Virus record (IMG/VR): IMGVR_UViG_3300032285_002884
Source: a virus
Length of the DNA: 64,000 nt
Strand: one strand, 5' to 3'
The notes under the pieces are model-generated. The model was not told the DNA's origin, searched no databases, and saw nothing but the letters and a program-made list of their open reading frames with translations. Made by a program: the position numbers and the translations under genes. Numbering within the stretch: the stretch's first letter is position 1; every line of letters begins with the position of its first letter. Below are positions 2,963 to 20,045 of this stretch, in pieces.

Positions 2963-3443
2963 ATGTTCTAGCTTTTTCCATCTTACCGAGAGTGATGACC
3001 AGACGGTTGTCTCTCTCGTCTTTGTATGGCTTTAGGTCTAGGTCTTTCGGCACGCTCGTGAGCTTCTCGTGACCTTCTAGCTTGATGTACCTGTCGATGA
3101 ACCTGCTGTACTTTTCCCAGTTGATCCCTGCCTGTACTACCGCGTCGTGCTCTACTGCAGTCGCGATGAGGTGGGCTTCTTGGTACTTTAGTCCGAAACC
3201 GTCGATTAAAGCCTTCTCAACTTTCTCGTGCATCTCGATGAACTTCTGTATGTCCTTGCCGTTCGGCATCTTGAAGTTGGCGTGTCTGTCGAAGTAGACC
3301 GTGCTTCCGTCTCTTGAGTATCCCCCGACATACGGTACGTCGAACGTCTTGACTACCCTGTATGGTCTATTGAACAGTCTCTTGAACTTCGGGTCTGTGA
3401 GGTACTTGAACTCACTAAAGGACAGCTTTCTTGGAAGCTTCAT
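2961..3443 (-). CDS. Hypothetical protein (HExxE...H possible metal site)
   Basis: Start MKLPRK with AGGAG; MHEKVE and EAHLIA. Confidence 0.65.
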   Translation of the reverse strand: MKLPRKLSFSEFKYLTDPKFKRLFNRPYRVVKTFDVPYVGGYSRDGSTVYFDRHANFKMPNGKDIQKFIEMHEKVEKALIDGFGLKYQEAHLIATAVEHDAVVQAGINWEKYSRFIDRYIKLEGHEKLTSVPKDLDLKPYKDERDNRLVITLGKMEKART

Positions 3444-3445
3444 GA

Positions 3446-4126
3446 TTACTCCTTCTTGAAAAGCTCGTTGAGCTCCTCTAGGGTATTGACGGACGCGTCT
3501 GATCTGCATAGATCTAGATATTTATCCTTGTCCGTGCTCCATGTATCCCCGTCCCACCACTCAAATCCTGGAAAGCCAGCCTTATACAGGGAGCTCTCGT
3601 CGTATCCAGGACCGAAGTAGATGTGCTCACATCCGAGGTCTTTGGCGAACTGGATCTCGAAGTCTACTATCTTGCGTCCGAGCGACAGCTTAGGCTCAGC
3701 GTAGTCCCAAGCTGTGAACTGGCTCTCTACTCCGCCGTCGTACTCGATGAACTTGGTAAACGCTACCATGACGCCGTCTTTCTTGATGGCGACTAGGGAT
3801 GCCCTGTCGAGGTCGCAGTAGAGGTCGAAGTGTGGTGTGAAGCCTCTTGCCTCAAGGAACGCCGCATAGACACGATCCACCTCTGGAGTCTTCTCCATGG
3901 TGAGTATGTATTCGACAGTGTGTCCCTTGATAGGCTTTGGATTCTTGACGAAAGCGTCGACCCTGATGCGGGTCAGACGGGACTGCAACCACTTTCCGTC
4001 GTAGATAGACCAACCGTTATCGAGCGCCACGCTCTCAGGCGTGTCGCCAAGCTCCAAGCTGAGTTTAACCAGCTGGAGATCGAACGTGTCTTGTCTCCCG
4101 AAGAAGTGGTTTATCTTGGTCTTCAT
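3446..4126 (-). CDS. ATE1/Bpt-like aminoacyl-tRNA-protein transferase
   Basis: LDNGW..; SQFTAWDY..PKLSLG...EIQFAKDLGCEHIYFG..Y....YKAGF matches the ATE C-terminal pattern. Confidence 0.7.
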   Translation of the reverse strand: MKTKINHFFGRQDTFDLQLVKLSLELGDTPESVALDNGWSIYDGKWLQSRLTRIRVDAFVKNPKPIKGHTVEYILTMEKTPEVDRVYAAFLEARGFTPHFDLYCDLDRASLVAIKKDGVMVAFTKFIEYDGGVESQFTAWDYAEPKLSLGRKIVDFEIQFAKDLGCEHIYFGPGYDESSLYKAGFPGFEWWDGDTWSTDKDKYLDLCRSDASVNTLEELNELFKKE

Positions 4127-14825: not shown

Positions 14826-15482
14826 TTATCTCTTCATTAGTTCCTCTACAAAGTCTAGCAATAGACCGTGGTTCTTCTTCTCTATGTCTCCGTTCCATAC
14901 CTTCTTCATCCAGCTGTACTCGGTGTACCAGTGCTTCTGAGCTTCAGGGTGGGAACCTATGAGACCTATCCTGTCTTGATAGCCGGCCATCACGTCACCG
15001 TTTCCATATCTAGCGACCACGTCGAACCGGCCGCTGCCGACGATGCTGCAGCCGTCGTACCAGAACATCTTCTCTTTCTCGTCTTTCCACGTGACTTCTA
15101 GATGCTTGGCGTGCGGCCTTCTCGTATCCGTCTTAGGACGTGCAAGGTACTGTACGCAGTCGCGATTGTCTAAGATGTCTAGGTATTCTTTTCCAGCCCA
15201 GTAGGCGCCCATGCATATGCCGAGATAGCGACCTCCTCTGTTTAAGATGAAGTCTCTTATCACGGGTATATGCCACCTCATGATCATGCTAAACTTAGAT
15301 GCGTCGCCTAGACCTCCAGGAACCGCTATCATCTCGACGTCGTCGAACCAGTCATCATAGAGAATATCTTGTCTAGTAAAGATCTTAAACTGGTAGTACG
15401 GTTGAAGCACGTTCAGTATGCCGTTGACGCCGTGGATCGAGCAGTATGGATGGTCTATGAATAGCGCGATCTTCTTGTTCAT
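14826..15482 (-). CDS. BPL_N / class I glutamine amidotransferase-like protein
   Basis: VPGG, GGRYLGICMGAY, GSHPE. Confidence 0.8.
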   Translation of the reverse strand: MNKKIALFIDHPYCSIHGVNGILNVLQPYYQFKIFTRQDILYDDWFDDVEMIAVPGGLGDASKFSMIMRWHIPVIRDFILNRGGRYLGICMGAYWAGKEYLDILDNRDCVQYLARPKTDTRRPHAKHLEVTWKDEKEKMFWYDGCSIVGSGRFDVVARYGNGDVMAGYQDRIGLIGSHPEAQKHWYTEYSWMKKVWNGDIEKKNHGLLLDFVEELMKR

Positions 15483-15503
15483 ATAGTTCTCTGTTTAAGA
15501 TGC

Positions 15504-15578
15504 TGGCACCGGTCCTCAGAATCGAACTGAGTTCTCAAGGTTTTGGAGACCTGCGGATTACCACTTTCCCTGACCGAT
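15504..15578 (-). tRNA. tRNA-Trp(CCA)
   Basis: CAGGT-CTCCAAA-ACCTT; G73, CCA. Confidence 0.92.
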
Positions 15579-16331
15579 TTAAGCTTTGTAGGAGAACACC
15601 GGTGACTGCTTCTTCACCGCCTCGCTGGTAGTCTTGAACGGCTTGACACCATGTCTCAGGCCTCTCAAGAATCCAGGAAGGTTCTCCCAGTTCGTCTCGG
15701 CGTTCCCCTTCTCGGGGGCCTGAGCATACGTATCCCTGTCACCGACCTCGGCGACGACCAGCGGTGGGTCGACTGCCATGAGGTTCATGCCGAAGGAGTT
15801 GTTGACTCCCATAAGACCGTCCACGTTCATGGTGATGTGGTTGGTGTAGAATATAGCGCCGAGCATCTTCCTAGCCGTCATCGGCGTGATGGCATAGGCG
15901 TGTGTACCCTCGAAGTGGTCTACCTTCTTGAAAGATACCCTCTCGTTAGGTACTGAGTAGTCGTCTCGGTTCCATACGCGCGGGCCGAGCCATAGGATCT
16001 CGCCGTCGTTGACCTTGATGCCGTCGAGTGGTGCCTTGACCACCGCGTCGTGCTCGAGTACCACGGCCGGCTGGTTCTCTTGAATGATCTTCATCCAGAT
16101 AAACATGTGACCGAGTGAGCAGCAGAACTCTCTATGGTACTGACGATCGTCGTCGAAGGTTCCGGGACGACCCATGGTGTACCCGTACTTCTTCGTGATG
16201 TCGGCGTTGAGTAGTCCGTGCACTCCCTCGAAGAGCTCGGCGTCGACACCGTGCTCCTTGCAGGAGGCCAGCGTGTCGAGAGCGTACTTCTTGGAGTCAC
16301 CCTTGTCAATGTATAAGATGTAGGCCTTCAT
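15579..16331 (-). CDS. GT25-family glycosyltransferase
   Basis: CSLGH..IW, VVLEHDA, GTHAYAITP..A. Confidence 0.85.
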   Translation of the reverse strand: MKAYILYIDKGDSKKYALDTLASCKEHGVDAELFEGVHGLLNADITKKYGYTMGRPGTFDDDRQYHREFCCSLGHMFIWMKIIQENQPAVVLEHDAVVKAPLDGIKVNDGEILWLGPRVWNRDDYSVPNERVSFKKVDHFEGTHAYAITPMTARKMLGAIFYTNHITMNVDGLMGVNNSFGMNLMAVDPPLVVAEVGDRDTYAQAPEKGNAETNWENLPGFLRGLRHGVKPFKTTSEAVKKQSPVFSYKA

Positions 16332-16372
16332 GATTAATCCTCGTCTAGCGTTGTCGTCACTAGTTTATATAT

Positions 16373-16447
16373 TGGTGCAGGAAGTTGGAGTCGAACCAAC
16401 CTTAAAAGCCTTATGAGGACTCCTCGACACCTTGCCGACCTACCTGC
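16373..16447 (-). tRNA. tRNA(CAT): Met or Ile2
   Basis: GAGTC-CTCATAA-GGCTT; CCA; identity not resolvable by eye. Confidence 0.85.
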
Positions 16448-16452
16448 GTCGT

Positions 16453-16527
16453 TGGTACTGTCTACTGGTATCGATCCAGTTCTACGAGTGCCACAAACTC
16501 GTGTGCAACCTTTAACACTTAGACAGC
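16453..16527 (-). tRNA. tRNA-His(GTG), alphaproteobacterial type
   Basis: CGAGT-TTGTGGC-ACTCG; G1:U72, A73, no encoded G-1. Confidence 0.9.
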
Positions 16528-16528
16528 A

Positions 16529-16602
16529 TGGTTGTCCTACTTGGTTACGATCCAAGGTCTCGCGATTATCAGTCGCGTGCTCTCCCATTGAGCTATAGGA
16601 CA
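16529..16602 (-). tRNA. tRNA-Ile(GAT)
   Basis: CGCGA-CTGATAA-TCGCG; atypical T-loop ATCGTAA; CCA. Confidence 0.9.
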
Positions 16603-16608
16603 ATGAAC

Positions 16609-16777
16609 TGGGCGGGAGAGAAGGACTCGAACCTTCAAGCTGCAGCTACTGTTTCCAGACAGCTCTCCCGAGGTTGTCGCTGGTCCGATTCGAACGGTGT
16701 CCTAGTGTTGACCATCTGCACTTCCCACAGTACTGACAGCGACTCAATGTAGCGGCTCTTTTCTCTAATCACTCCCG
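16609..16777 (-). ncRNA. tRNA-like RNA of about 169 nt
   Basis: 5' CGGGAG pairs 3' CTCCCG-C-CCA; T-arm GAAGG-TTCGAGT-CCTTC; no anticodon arm; second internal TTCGAAT hairpin. Confidence 0.65.
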
Positions 16778-16841
16778 ATAGATGCTGGCCAGCATAGGGC
16801 ATAGAGGTCTGAACGGTGGACGCCACCCTTTCACTACAATA

Positions 16842-16881
16842 TGGTGCCGGATGTCGGGATTGAACTGACGACCTACCGCTT
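16842..16881 (-). pseudogene. 3' half of a disrupted tRNA (Thr-like)
   Basis: AAGCGGT-AGGTC-GTCAG-TTCAATC-CCGAC-ATCCGGC-ACCA; matching 5' GCCGGATTAGCTC at 17394-17382. Confidence 0.85.
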
Positions 16882-17256
16882 CCTAGCACTGTTTTTATTT
16901 TTAGCTCTAAATGTGTCCGTTTGAGAATGACAGTTAGGACACAAGAACTCTAAATTCTCTAATATGTTATTGGATGCATTTCCATCAATATGATGGACTT
17001 CTAAAGTTATATCTTTCTCGAGCCAAGACTCTATTTTACAACTTTCACATTTATAACCTTTTTTATCGATCAATAAACGTCTAGACCATCCTCTAATTTG
17101 GAAAAGTTGACCACTGTTTTTACCATCTAAAAAACTTTGCATTTTATTTTTAGACTGATATTCATGCTGACATGAATTATTGCAGTATTTTTTACCGCGT
17201 AAGTTCTTTCTTCCTTTAGTTGGAATAAGCTCGTTGTTACAGTTTAGACAGTGCAT
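16873..17256 (-). mobile_element. HNH homing endonuclease
   Basis: CESC, LEVHHIDG..SNN..ENL..LCPNCHSQT; AT-rich; late promoter in hairpin 17267-17300. Confidence 0.92.
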
Positions 17257-17311
17257 TGTGTTTCCTTGTAAAGCATTTACTATATTTATAATGCTTTACA
17301 TTTAATAGTAC

Positions 17312-17385
17312 TGGTGCTCCCACTTAGAATCGAACTAAGAACTGATGCTTACAAGGCAACTGTTATACCATTTAACTATAAGAGC
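17312..17385 (-). tRNA. tRNA-Thr(TGT), AT-rich
   Basis: GTTGC-CTTGTAA-GCATC; CCA. Confidence 0.9.
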
Positions 17386-17400
17386 TAATCCGGCATAATA

Positions 17401-17493
17401 TGGTGGGTGAGGTTGGATTCGAACCAACAGTGTTTACCTATAAGGACCGGATTTACAGTCCGGGGATGCACACGCCGTAGCATCAACTCACCC
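17401..17493 (-). tRNA. tRNA-Tyr(GTA)
   Basis: CCGGA-CTGTAAA-TCCGG; long variable arm; CCA. Confidence 0.93.
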
Positions 17494-17500
17494 ATTGTAT

Positions 17501-17575
17501 TGGCGACCCGTAGGGGTTTCGAACCCCTCTAACTCGTTAGACAGACGAGTATCCACACCAGCTGATTCACGGACC
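17501..17575 (-). tRNA. tRNA-Asp(GTC)
   Basis: CTCGT-CTGTCTA-ACGAG; G73, CCA. Confidence 0.92.
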
Positions 17576-17758
17576 TTTATTCTTTAACCATTCCTGATAA
17601 TCTTTTTGATTATCTACATTAAAGAAAACATTTTTAGTTTCTAAAATAGAAAGGTTCTTATAAACTTCTTTATAATACTTATTGCATAAGAGCATAAGAG
17701 TTTGATGAATTAACAAGTTTACATCTTTATCTCCAGTAATGGAAGCTATTTTAGTCAT
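17567..17758 (-). CDS. AT-rich hypothetical protein
   Basis: GAGGAG SD; stop inside tRNA-Asp 5' end. Confidence 0.6.
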   Translation of the reverse strand: MTKIASITGDKDVNLLIHQTLMLLCNKYYKEVYKNLSILETKNVFFNVDNQKDYQEWLKNKGP

Positions 17759-17774
17759 TCTAATTACTCCTCAA

Positions 17775-17877
17775 TGGCGCCGCCGAAACATTCGTCTAAC
17801 CTCATGTCTTCACGGTAGCTAACTCCGTTACTAGCTAGGTAGGACTTCAGAGGTCCGTGTCTCGAATGTTCCAGCGA
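17775..17877 (-). ncRNA. Putative structured RNA (about 100 nt)
   Basis: Terminal stem CGCTGGAACATTCG/CGAATGTTTCGGCG, two internal hairpins, ends GCCA. Confidence 0.5.
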
Positions 17878-17882
17878 TTAGT

Positions 17883-17959
17883 TGGAGGGGAAGATGGGAT
17901 TCGAACCCACATTCCAAGGTTTTGCAGACCTCGCAGTAGCCATTCCTGCACACTTCCCC
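17883..17959 (-). tRNA. tRNA-Cys(GCA)
   Basis: GAGGT-CTGCAAA-ACCTT; U73, CCA. Confidence 0.93.
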
Positions 17960-17965
17960 ATGAAT

Positions 17966-18052
17966 AGCCACCGTACTTCCATTCGTCAATGGAGATCACC
18001 TGTTGATTCAGGTTCCTGATGTTGCGCTTCGTCGAGAGGCGTAGGCGGTGAA
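17966..18052 (-). ncRNA. Putative structured RNA (multi-stem junction)
   Basis: CACCG/CGGTG closing stem; ACCTG/CAGGT and TCCATT/AATGGA hairpins; no ORF. Confidence 0.45.
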
Positions 18053-18055
18053 TAA

Positions 18056-18132
18056 TGGCTCCGGGAGTTGGAATCGAACCAACCTGATGAACAGATTAAC
18101 AGTCTGCTGTCCCACCTTGTGACCGTCCCGGA
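18056..18132 (-). tRNA. tRNA-Asn(GTT)
   Basis: GCAGA-CTGTTAA-TCTGT; G73, CCA. Confidence 0.93.
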
Positions 18133-18144
18133 ATAAATCTTATC

Positions 18145-18423
18145 TTACTGACTCGGCTTCTTGTCGTCGTAGCCGAGCCACTTCTTTACGGCTCCAACTG
18201 CCTGCTTACCAAGTCTAGCGCCGTAGGTGGCGCCGAGACCGACAGCTATCGGCTCGGTAACCGGAGCGGCAGGACCACCCAGTGAACCTAGAGCGGCACC
18301 AGCTGCGGCACCTGCAGCTCCACCTACTACCTTACCTGTAGTGGTGGCTAGGTCGTCCTCGTCGTCGTCCTCGTCGACTACCTTTTTATTTCCGGTCTTA
18401 GTAAATTCTCTAAAAGACTTCAT
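18145..18423 (-). CDS. Late glycine-zipper protein with capsid-targeting-like N-terminus
   Basis: MKSFREFT; GxxxG repeats; TATAAATA at 18456-18449. Confidence 0.7.
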   Translation of the reverse strand: MKSFREFTKTGNKKVVDEDDDEDDLATTTGKVVGGAAGAAAGAALGSLGGPAAPVTEPIAVGLGATYGARLGKQAVGAVKKWLGYDDKKPSQ

Positions 18424-18584
18424 CATCGATCCTCTGCGTCGGTCGACTTATTTATAGACCGAGATGAAAGCGAGGGTTTTGTTGTGTCAGGATGACCCTC
18501 AAACCCCGGACCGACAGCCCATCTCACATTTCGTCGGTCGCGGAAGCGGAAGCAGCACATGGAGCGCCGATGAGTCCGCTGTAT

Positions 18585-18661
18585 TGGTGATCCCCCTTGG
18601 ACTCGAACCAAGGACCCGCTGATTAAGAGTCAGCTGCTCTAACCAACTGAGCTAGGGGATC
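18585..18661 (-). tRNA. tRNA-Lys(CTT)
   Basis: GCTGA-CTCTTAA-TCAGC; CCA. Confidence 0.96.
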
Positions 18662-18691
18662 AAAGATTATTTATGATCCCCTCTGAGTAGC

Positions 18692-18934
18692 TCAGACGAG
18701 ACCGGCAGCCAGTGCCTTGTAGCCTGCTGCGATGACCTTACGCGAAGCCGAGCCGAGACGATAGCGTGACGTCTTGCCTGACTTGTTGAGATAGATCGGA
18801 TAACCCTGCATACGAAGTGTCGAGACAGTCGCGGTCGGGTTGGCTACGTTGAAGCGAGAAGCGATCTGCTTCGATGTAAGCTCTTCACCGGACTTGAATG
18901 CTTCGAGTACGCGCTGTGTTGCAGAAGTCGTCAT
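18692..18934 (-). CDS. Winged-helix DNA-binding protein
   Basis: ELTSKQIASRFNVANPTATVSTLR..GY.I; own TTGACA-17-TAGTAT promoter. Confidence 0.7.
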   Translation of the reverse strand: MTTSATQRVLEAFKSGEELTSKQIASRFNVANPTATVSTLRMQGYPIYLNKSGKTSRYRLGSASRKVIAAGYKALAAGLV

Positions 18935-19022
18935 TAGTATGTTCTCCATTACGATTAAACTCGTGGGCTCTTCCCACTATCTAATACTACCATAGTTTAG
19001 ATTACTTGTCAACTAGAAAGAT

Positions 19023-19098
19023 TGGCGCTCCCAACCGGATTTGAACCGGTGTGATCCGCGTGAGAGGCGGGTATCCTAGGCCGCTAGATGATGGGAGC
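19023..19098 (-). tRNA. tRNA-Glu(CTC)
   Basis: CCCGC-CTCTCAC-GCGGA; CCA. Confidence 0.93.
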
Positions 19099-19104
19099 GG
19101 ATAT

Positions 19105-19181
<77 letters not shown>

Positions 19182-19188
19182 ATTATAC

Positions 19189-19265
19189 TGGCGCGGCGTA
19201 TCGGACTCGAACCGATATTGTTCTCCTTGAAAGGGAGGATTCCTATGCCGTTAGAAGAACGCCGC
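19189..19265 (-). tRNA. tRNA-Glu(TTC)
   Basis: CCTCC-CTTTCAA-GGAGA; CCA. Confidence 0.93.
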
Positions 19266-19393
19266 TTGTTCATAAATATCGTCGTATGATGTTAAGGTGG
19301 CACGACGAGGATAGTAGACCAGAGTCTTTTCCACCTTTCGATTCTGGGCTCAACGAATTGGCAGTCGAGTACTCGAATCGTCTCATACAAACT

Positions 19394-19468
19394 TGGTGCA
19401 TCCTGCAGGGATTGAACCTACGACCTCTACGATGTCAACGTAGCGCTCTACCGCTAAGCTAAGGATGC
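19394..19468 (-). tRNA. tRNA-Val(GAC)
   Basis: CTACG-TTGACAT-CGTAG; CCA. Confidence 0.95.
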
Positions 19469-19477
19469 GTTGTCTAT

Positions 19478-19553
19478 TGGTGATCACTCTGGGACTCGAA
19501 CCCAGCACATGCAAGTTAAAAGCTTGCCGCTCTACCAACTGAGCTAAGTGATC
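19478..19553 (-). tRNA. tRNA-Lys(TTT)
   Basis: GCAAG-CTTTTAA-CTTGC; CCA. Confidence 0.96.
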
Positions 19554-19559
19554 GAGTTA

Positions 19560-20045
19560 GTTGGCATTTGTTCTGTTTGATGATCGATGATCAACCGCAT
19601 TCCTACCATCTCCGTAGGTGCTTCACCGGCAGTGCCACGCTGCCACGATTAGTTGTTTGGCTACTAGTGGGACTGGCATCCCTCGTTCGTGTCCCTGCCA
19701 GAGGACACAGATACCAGCGCGCTGGCCAGTACCGTCCAAATCCTATTGTCTCTGCAAAGATACTACATAGAATCGAATTTCGGAGTCGGGTGCTTCCCTT
19801 CCTTAGCCATTGATCGGGTTGTCTCAGGATGGCAAGATGGCCCTATCATCCGTAGTGCATGCGTCCATGCACGATACCCCGTGTAGTATCCGTGGAGAGA
19901 CAACAATTGTCTCTGCAAGGATACACCGCACCTGCAACAGTGCCTACGCTGCTCGTTGCAGAGCTTATAAGCCATAGCACCGCAGTCGTGTATCCGTGGA
20001 GAGACAACCGAAGTTGTCTTTCGTTTAACGATGTCAATCAGCCAT
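19560..20045 (-). ncRNA. Large structured leader RNA of the tRNA operon (about 490 nt)
   Basis: No credible ORF; duplicated long-range helices TTGTCTCT-CCAC-GGATAC / GTATC(C/T)-TTGC-AGAGACAA; many hairpins. Confidence 0.6.

Follow-up and report, generated by a model that had tools for sequence, protein, structure and literature searches.

We analysed the first 64 kb (hereafter the window) of a 150.6-kb IMG/VR virus record, a metagenome-assembled contig estimated to be 91% complete; the DNA polymerase encoded in the window is ~50% identical to gp43 of cyanomyoviruses, and we therefore regard the source as a T4-like phage. ARAGORN identified 27 tRNA genes on the minus strand of the window, and within this cluster the site described here reads, in minus-strand order, tRNA-Tyr, a 6-nt spacer, the 5′ stump of a tRNA gene, an intact tRNA-Thr(UGU), a hairpin with a ribosome-binding site (RBS), an HNH ORF and a 3′ stump. 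The GC content is 0.28–0.36 over about positions 16900–17400, with flanks of ~0.5 and a value of 0.51 for the whole window. The features are as follows (all on the minus strand):

17401–17493 (−): resident tRNA-Tyr(GUA), called by ARAGORN; this upstream flank is identical to that of locus L004 and fixes the start of the old tRNA-Thr 6 nt downstream
17382–17394 (−): 5′ stump of the resident tRNA-Thr(UGU), GCCGGATTAGCTC, nt 1–13, made up of the acceptor strand (GCCGGAT), nt 8–9 (TA) and the 5′ strand of the D-stem (GCTC)
16882–17381 (−): AT-rich insert replacing tRNA nt 14–36, 500 nt, GC 0.32; the break in collinearity with L004
17312–17385 (−): incoming intact tRNA-Thr(UGU), called by ARAGORN, Rfam tRNA 63.3 bits
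17267–17300 (−): conserved 11-bp hairpin, TGTAAAGCATT...AATGCTTTACA, with TATAAATA in its loop (17283–17290)
17260–17266 (−): RBS AAGGAAA, 3′ of the hairpin and before the HNH ORF
16873–17256 (−): HNH endonuclease gene, 127 aa; Pfam PF01844 at 22.9 bits (cut-off 21.4), and PHROG HNH families
16842–16881 (−): 3′ stump of the resident tRNA-Thr(UGU), nt 37–76, comprising the 3′ strand of the anticodon stem, the variable loop, the T-arm, the 3′ acceptor strand ATCCGGC, A and CCA

A resident tRNA-Thr gene in two pieces

We sought relatives by an exact search of IMG/VR with a 19-mer from the very 3′ end of the presumed old tRNA, which returned 10 contigs; in 10/10 this 19-mer was the 3′ end of a tRNA-Thr(tgt). 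The most informative was L004 (IMGVR_UViG_3300021137_000030), which is collinear with the window and 93–98% identical to it in blocks over 4 kb of the tRNA cluster, with the tRNA order Val, Glu, Pro, Glu, Lys, Asn, Asp, Tyr, Thr, Ile, His, Met, Trp, Phe, Arg, Gly, Gly, Ala common to both. A first-pass annotation made from the sequence of the window had predicted that a relative without the HNH gene would carry an intact tRNA-Thr(TGT) beginning GCCGGAT, and this is what L004 has: an intact 75-nt tRNA-Thr(tgt) at 1638–1712, directly after tRNA-Tyr. The same annotation had placed an old tRNA in two pieces at 17394–17382 and 16881–16842, and comparison with the L004 gene bears this out exactly, in that the longest exact matches in the window to the two ends of the L004 tRNA-Thr are a 13-nt prefix, at 17394, and a 40-nt suffix running from 16881 to 16842 (...TTCAATCCCGACATCCGGCACCA), each with a single occurrence. 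A tRNA-Thr profile searched with nhmmer also matched the 3′ stump (profile positions 36–75, E 3e-5). Upstream, window positions 17575–17382 are 97.9% identical to L004 1457–1650; the window then has 500 nt (17381–16882) in place of 22 nt of L004 (1651–1672; tRNA nt 14–36, from the D-loop to the anticodon), and within the tRNA-Thr gene collinearity breaks only between the two stumps. With 53 of 53 stump positions identical at a syntenic place, chance is excluded: a resident tRNA-Thr(UGU) of normal GC content lost nt 14–36 and gained 500 nt of AT-rich DNA. Of the loci with stumps, the window alone has both stumps of one tRNA-Thr.

As had been proposed, the DNA between the halves is foreign in composition (GC 0.32 vs 0.51) and absent from the near-identical L004, and an intact tRNA-Thr(TGT) and an HNH gene within it were recovered by ARAGORN, Rfam, Pfam and PHROG; the insert thus holds this tRNA, a hairpin with a T4-type late-promoter motif and the 127-aa HNH gene. 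Having lost nt 14–36, the old tRNA-Thr could not be restored by any splice, and a search of window positions 15000–19600 gave no Intron_gpI match at E-values up to 1. We accordingly discarded two candidates, an endonuclease encoded within an intron, as the region has no ribozyme and the old tRNA is missing nt 14–36, and a residual intron in the window, which the lack of an Intron_gpI match rules out.

The two joints differ in character. At the left joint, old ...ATTA-GCTC meets new GCTC-TTATAG, the GCTC serving both as the D-stem of the old gene and as the start of the acceptor stem of the new one, so that the junction is ambiguous by these 4 nt (17382–17385). This microhomology, pointed out in the first-pass annotation, is real, and a donor resembling L206, with TTA before its tRNA, would extend the overlap to 7 nt (TTAGCTC). 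The right joint shares at most 1–2 nt (0–2). An assembler might in principle have joined reads of an AT-rich phage into this contig at tRNA repeats, the record being metagenome-assembled and L004-like and L162-like phages occurring together in one metagenome (3300021137); we consider this highly improbable, however, as overlaps of 4–7 nt and 0–2 nt at the joints are much shorter than the words used by any assembler, the old gene resumes after the insert 22 nt beyond the point where it was left, with the ORF fused in frame to a stop, and similar stumps occur in independent assemblies (L216–218, three ENA samples).

The new tRNA-Thr has a GC content of 0.39, the lowest among the 27 tRNAs of the window. 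It keeps G1–C72, C2–G71 and the discriminator A73, has a U–U mismatch in its anticodon stem, and differs from the old gene in that stem (GTTGC/GCATC in the new tRNA vs ACCGC/GCGGT in the old). The window has no other tRNA-Thr(UGU), and the new one therefore replaces the lost function, in agreement with its earlier description as a replacement tRNA. Its sequence is 97% identical to L162:4849-4922 and 96% identical to that of L206. L162 is an AT-rich contig (GC 0.37) with no HNH gene, from the same metagenome (3300021137) as L004, and its native tRNA-Thr(UGU) directly precedes the same ~240-nt RNA as comes after the old tRNA in both the window and L004. Based on the identity to L162 and this shared downstream RNA, we take the new tRNA-Thr to be an orthologue from another lineage of related phages.

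Several further elements of the cluster deserve description. The conserved ~240-nt non-coding RNA after tRNA-Thr(UGU) lies at 16603–16841 (−) in the window, at L004:1713-1952 (96.6% identical) and at L162:4923-5085; it gave a weak Rfam match to YrlA (E 0.87), and its 3′-terminal ~62 nt make up a tRNA-like mini element that begins CGGGAGA, has the T-arm GAAGG-TTCGAGT-CCTTC, ends TCTCCCG-C-CCA and has no anticodon arm. In L029 (2803–2864) this mini element occurs alone right after tRNA-Thr. A second AT-rich insert is present in the window at 17576–17774 (−), with a GC content of 0.21–0.29, where L004 has 4 nt; its 63-aa ORF, for which searches of the fetched loci, Pfam and PHROGs gave no homologue, stops at a TGA inside the 5′ end of tRNA-Asp, whose position 3 is T in the window and L162 and C in L004. 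Lastly, positions 19280–19388 (+) match the Rhizobiales sRNA Atu_At1 in Rfam (62.1 bits; gathering score 60); the match lies between tRNA-Glu and tRNA-Val, on the other strand from the tRNA genes, and could point to a host among the Rhizobiales or be a false match of tRNA-related origin.

The HNH gene and its association with tRNA-Thr

The 127-aa protein matched PHROG HNH endonuclease families at 1.8e-24, 7.9e-24 and 1.9e-18. It has an N-terminal CxxC...CxxxC zinc ribbon, the core residues H89, N101 and H110 and the zinc ligands C70, C73, C106 and C109; H89, N97/N101, H110 and the four cysteines are invariant in 14 relatives and all are present in the window protein. An AlphaFold model of the protein had a pLDDT of 85, and the top Foldseek matches in the PDB were all HNH domains (EcoKMcrA, GVE2 HNH, ScoMcrA, Cap5 and I-HmuI), if weak (best E 0.027); a search of the PDB by sequence came back empty. 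The closest relative among 5.8 billion proteins has 72% amino acid identity, the best in IMG/VR has 57%, and the 150-kb genome holds no further copy. The 14 relatives are 131–142 aa long and end ...AKNKNSAR-TYR(R/K)K.., while the window protein ends AKNKNSAR-KR-stop. The last codons of its gene, AAG-CGG-TAG, are nt 37–45 of the old tRNA, the stop coming from the old variable loop, just as had been noted from the sequence; given the longer ends of the relatives and these borrowed codons, the ORF lost its last ~6–10 codons at the right joint. With the family-invariant residues kept and a confident model, the gene still looks active.

The hairpin upstream of this gene (−11.1 kcal/mol, z −1.6) also precedes the HNH gene in L216–218, with variants in L212 and L219. 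The window holds eight occurrences of its loop motif TATAAATA, where 0.63 would be expected, and each lies on the local coding strand:

8334, 17283, 18449, 20273, 22898 and 37687 (−): TATAAATA
46144 and 51562 (+): TATAAATA

Being both enriched and oriented with the genes, the motif fits a T4-type late promoter, and the hairpin region probably combines a predicted late promoter with translational control of the HNH gene.

We then asked what part of the insert is shared with other HNH loci. DNA similarity to the closest of these (L212–215; 73% at the DNA level, 72% at the amino acid level) is limited to window positions 17303–16885, that is, from 9 nt after the new tRNA to 3 nt before the right joint, and starts at the conserved hairpin. 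In L212–215 a tRNA-Asp lies upstream of the HNH gene and a tRNA-Thr downstream, overlapping the end of the ORF; L219 has a tRNA-Thr on both sides, likewise L026, L029 and L087; and L216–218 have a quite different tRNA-Thr upstream. As homology spans the hairpin and ORF only, we regard these two as the mobile module and the tRNA as a neighbour in the particular donor. New-type tRNA-Thr genes are in addition common without the enzyme: 91 of the 96 copies with enough flanking sequence have no family HNH gene within 700 nt (5/96 do), the corresponding count for old-type tRNA-Thr loci with a family HNH gene within 700 nt being 0/10. The idea that tRNA and HNH gene travel as a fixed co-mobile cassette, put forward in the first-pass annotation, is therefore rejected, since the closest relatives share hairpin and ORF only and the new-type tRNA is common without an HNH gene; the new tRNA-Thr makes better sense as a marker that flanked the endonuclease gene in the donor genome and was copied along with it. 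Such an L162-type donor marker inside the insert is a feature of intronless homing, and so is a gene that one of two otherwise near-identical genomes has and the other lacks, as in the window vs L004 and in HdH2 vs T5. The donor arrangement itself, a new-type tRNA-Thr followed by an HNH gene of the window type, was not found in protein, IMG/VR or metagenome searches, and pattern scans of metagenomes for the tRNA end plus hairpin, and for the hairpin alone, were both empty.

The survey of HNH genes and tRNA-Thr that had been suggested showed a strong association of the family with tRNA-Thr. It covered 93 HNH copies in 89 loci. A tRNA-Thr called by ARAGORN was the immediate same-strand neighbour of 52 of the 93 copies, or of 60 when intron-bearing genes and stumps are counted, and tRNA-Thr makes up 79 of the 630 tRNAs in these loci (12.5%). 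When the Thr label was mapped on a maximum-likelihood tree, 10 changes sufficed vs 26.9 in shuffles (0/500 as low), a clustering that we read only as showing the association to be clade-wide, because near-copies inflate such values. In the clade of the window (SH-aLRT 98, 10 rows) the association with tRNA-Thr holds for 10/10, in every arrangement. Among cultured phages, a family member (41% identical) was found in the T5-like HdH2, where it lies between the T5.059 homologue and tRNA-Thr; T5 has none at this place. Taken together, sequence comparisons suggest that the window enzyme belongs to a large HNH family specialised on phage tRNA-Thr genes. Members of sister clades adjoin tRNA-Gly(GCC), tRNA-Val(UAC) or tRNA-Met (L064, L079, L054:5338-5733, L071/L072, L016 and L036), which suggests clade-specific tRNA targets. 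In L012 (3403–3488) the tRNA-Thr(UGU) after the HNH gene is 86 nt long and has a long extra arm, unusual for tRNA-Thr.

The candidate cut site and the origin of the insert

Damaged tRNA-Thr genes also lie near family members elsewhere. Partial tRNA-Thr matches fall within 300 nt of a family ORF in 15 of 23 cases, vs 12% of the sequence, although the 23 include duplicates and intron halves and correspond to ~10 independent cases near an ORF and 6 far from one. Stumps were found at about five loci besides the window, with 3′ stumps following the family ORF in L216–218, L069 and L067 and 5′ stumps preceding an intact tRNA or the ORF in L066 and L029; many family ORFs also extend into a tRNA-Thr downstream. 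In L216 and L069 we found no matching 5′ stump ahead of the intact tRNA. The end of the L066 ORF was considered as a tRNA 3′ end and rejected, being tRNA-like but without pairing to the L066 5′ stump.

In other relatives, the tRNA gene beside a family HNH gene is interrupted by a group I intron without an ORF (Rfam RF00028; gathering score 50):

L017:2510-2719: ORF-less group I intron in tRNA-Thr(UGU), 62.2 bits
L030:3369-3568: ORF-less group I intron in tRNA-Thr(UGU), 54.5 bits
L068:2668-2871: ORF-less group I intron in tRNA-Thr(UGU), 49.6 bits
L042:~3410-3610: ORF-less group I intron in tRNA-Asn(GUU)

Deleting the 200–210-nt intron restores a 76-nt tRNA-Thr(tgt) in L017, L030 and L068 (ARAGORN), and, following the rule of a U at the end of the 5′ exon and a G at the end of the intron, we placed the introns between nt 34 and 35. 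The claim that the incoming tRNA makes an intron unnecessary is apt in one respect, as these three relatives do carry an intron in their tRNA-Thr. Family members thus coexist with three states of the neighbouring tRNA-Thr: a group I intron at nt 34/35, a sequence variant, and a destroyed gene.

The stumps lie around the same position. The 3′ stump starts at nt 37 in the window and at about nt 36 in L067, the 5′ stumps all end at or before nt 27, and nt 28–35 are kept in no stump; moreover, the old anticodon stem-loop differs from that of the L017 exons by one base pair. On these sequence comparisons we lean slightly towards a family enzyme that cuts in the anticodon loop, with resection mainly leftward. 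Against this, L029 has an intron-free anticodon stem-loop of the old-like type 207 nt from a distant family member. The anticodon stem-loops of HNH-adjacent tRNAs and stumps in the clade of the window gave no consistent pattern for a recognition sequence. The tRNA-Thr genes of T5 (L224:4668-4742) and HdH2 (L221:1581-1655) differ in all five anticodon-stem pairs, with compensation, and hardly elsewhere. This contrast is only suggestive, because the Salmonella phage 'phagemcphageface' (L225:905-978), which has no HNH gene, has an anticodon stem of the HdH2 type; for the same reason the two alleles do not make a clean pair of target and immune variant, and we dropped them as such. The anticodon stem-loop of the T5 tRNA-Thr equals that of the new tRNA in the window.

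We consider it probable that the locus was left by the entry of a free-standing HNH homing endonuclease gene into the tRNA cluster of an uncultured T4-like phage, with the neighbouring tRNA of the donor copied in. In a mixed infection, the endonuclease would have cut the resident tRNA-Thr gene in or beside the anticodon loop; the left end would have been chewed back about 23 nt, to the D-stem, and the break repaired with copied donor DNA joined at microhomology, and not by ordinary homologous recombination. The donor tRNA-Thr would have come along as a neighbouring marker, to become the sole tRNA-Thr(UGU), and it is presumably not cut, because the anticodon-stem sequence of the old gene is missing from it. 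The truncated but otherwise intact HNH gene would then probably be transcribed late in infection from the TATAAATA motif. That the HNH enzyme made the break we infer from its association with tRNA-Thr, and tRNA fragments that occur away from HNH genes in tRNA clusters count against it. Homing, moreover, normally ends in homologous repair, and here both joints are illegitimate, though L162-type and window-type phages share the conserved downstream RNA, which could have served as a homologous arm; the actual donor may have had its HNH gene in another context, or a donor fragment may have been taken up during repair through microhomology.

These same observations bear on the alternative that the HNH gene was a passenger, the 500-nt segment having arrived by illegitimate recombination between co-infecting phages in a tRNA cluster prone to recombination and the enzyme having had no part in the break. 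Joints that are either blunt or at microhomology, the presence of a second, nuclease-free AT-rich insert 200 nt away at 17576–17774 that is absent from L004, and tRNA fragments away from HNH genes would all be accommodated. We nevertheless hold it unlikely, as it leaves unexplained why most of the 93 family copies adjoin a tRNA-Thr in unrelated contigs, and why stumps and introns of the same tRNA cluster around family members. Another alternative separates arrival from damage: the HNH gene would have come in by homologous recombination, giving two flanking tRNA-Thr genes, and the resident copy, still sensitive, would later have been cut by the enzyme now resident and partly deleted. Loci with tRNA-Thr on both sides (L219, L026, L029 and L087), the many ORFs that run into a downstream tRNA-Thr, and a right joint exactly at the anticodon would suit such a course; the 13-nt 5′ stump, however, lies upstream of the new tRNA and not beside the 3′ stump, which means that the insert split the old gene, as a single deletion from a tandem cannot give this order. 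We therefore think this two-step course quite unlikely, and retain homing by the HNH gene, with the donor tRNA carried along, as the preferred reading.

A broader picture is offered tentatively, as a real possibility short of a probability: the enzyme may represent a large and as yet undescribed HNH family specialised on the anticodon region of tRNA-Thr and driving an arms race whose outcomes would be ORF-less group I introns (possibly the first in phage tRNAs), swapped anticodon-stem variants and, at the window locus, loss of the target gene together with gain of a substitute tRNA ('replacement homing'), with sister clades acting on tRNA-Val, Gly or Met.

Comparison with known homing systems

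A close precedent is SegB of T4, a free-standing GIY-YIG homing endonuclease in a tRNA gene cluster that cuts tRNA genes at a T-arm motif; its homing transfers the gene with surrounding tRNA genes and excludes recipient tRNA markers, and it is absent from T2L, RB1 and RB3 (PMC2330249). The window locus is alike in having a free-standing endonuclease gene among phage tRNA genes that is absent from a close relative and has a neighbouring tRNA carried over with it. The window enzyme, however, is of the HNH type; SegB recognises a T-arm motif common to many tRNAs, whereas the window family tracks one tRNA species and within it probably the anticodon region; and the homing of SegB is homologous, in contrast to the window, where two stumps are what remains of the recipient gene. 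HNH endonucleases have also been described in the tRNA region of T5 (F-TflI, II, IV and hegC/hegD; Akulenko 2004, as cited in PMC2330249). By layout in the T5 annotation, these resemble the window and its relatives, with HNH genes interspersed with tRNA genes and ORF ends overlapping the next tRNA, hegD overlapping a tRNA-Gln annotated as a pseudogene; the T5 annotation differs in having no replacement tRNA or split target. With SegB and the T5 HNH genes as precedents, the kind of element described here is already known.

The intron-bearing relatives call to mind collaborative (trans) homing, as in F-CphI and the psbA intron of cyanophage S-PM2 or mobE and I-TevIII in T4, where a free-standing endonuclease gene adjoins a gene with an ORF-less group I intron that presumably disrupts the site of the enzyme (PMC6083498, PMC2790892, PMC3984707). 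L017, L030 and L068 match this layout exactly with tRNA-Thr(UGU); the difference is that collaborative homing targets protein genes and the target here is a tRNA gene. The window departs further, in that it has no intron and its resident tRNA-Thr was destroyed and another brought in. According to a 2014 review, all phage group I introns then known were in protein-coding genes (PMC3984707), and our literature search found no later report of group I introns in phage tRNA genes, which is weak evidence.

What we regard as new is the group I introns within phage tRNA genes, seen in the relatives; the HNH family and its apparent specialisation on one tRNA; and the split-and-replace outcome, which is preserved at base resolution. 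Phage tRNA clusters are now seen as a counter-defence against host tRNA-cleaving nucleases, and SegB amplifies such loci (PMC13096335). The locus would add a second way for a homing endonuclease to remodel the tRNA set, with the tRNA-Thr of one lineage swapped for that of another, and its stumps would document to the base, as is rarely possible, a homing event whose repair used microhomology. The relatives offer a natural system in which one endonuclease family can be set against a single tRNA gene in three forms, intron-protected, variant and destroyed, and tRNA-specific clades could supply compact site-specific nucleases.

A parallel for the split gene is mobE of Aeromonas phage Aeh1, a free-standing HNH gene inserted into nrdA, which it splits ('genes in pieces'). 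As in Aeh1, a free-standing HNH gene in the window divides its host gene in two; the nrdA halves of Aeh1 still make a working enzyme, however, whereas the tRNA halves of the window are dead and their function comes from an imported second copy.
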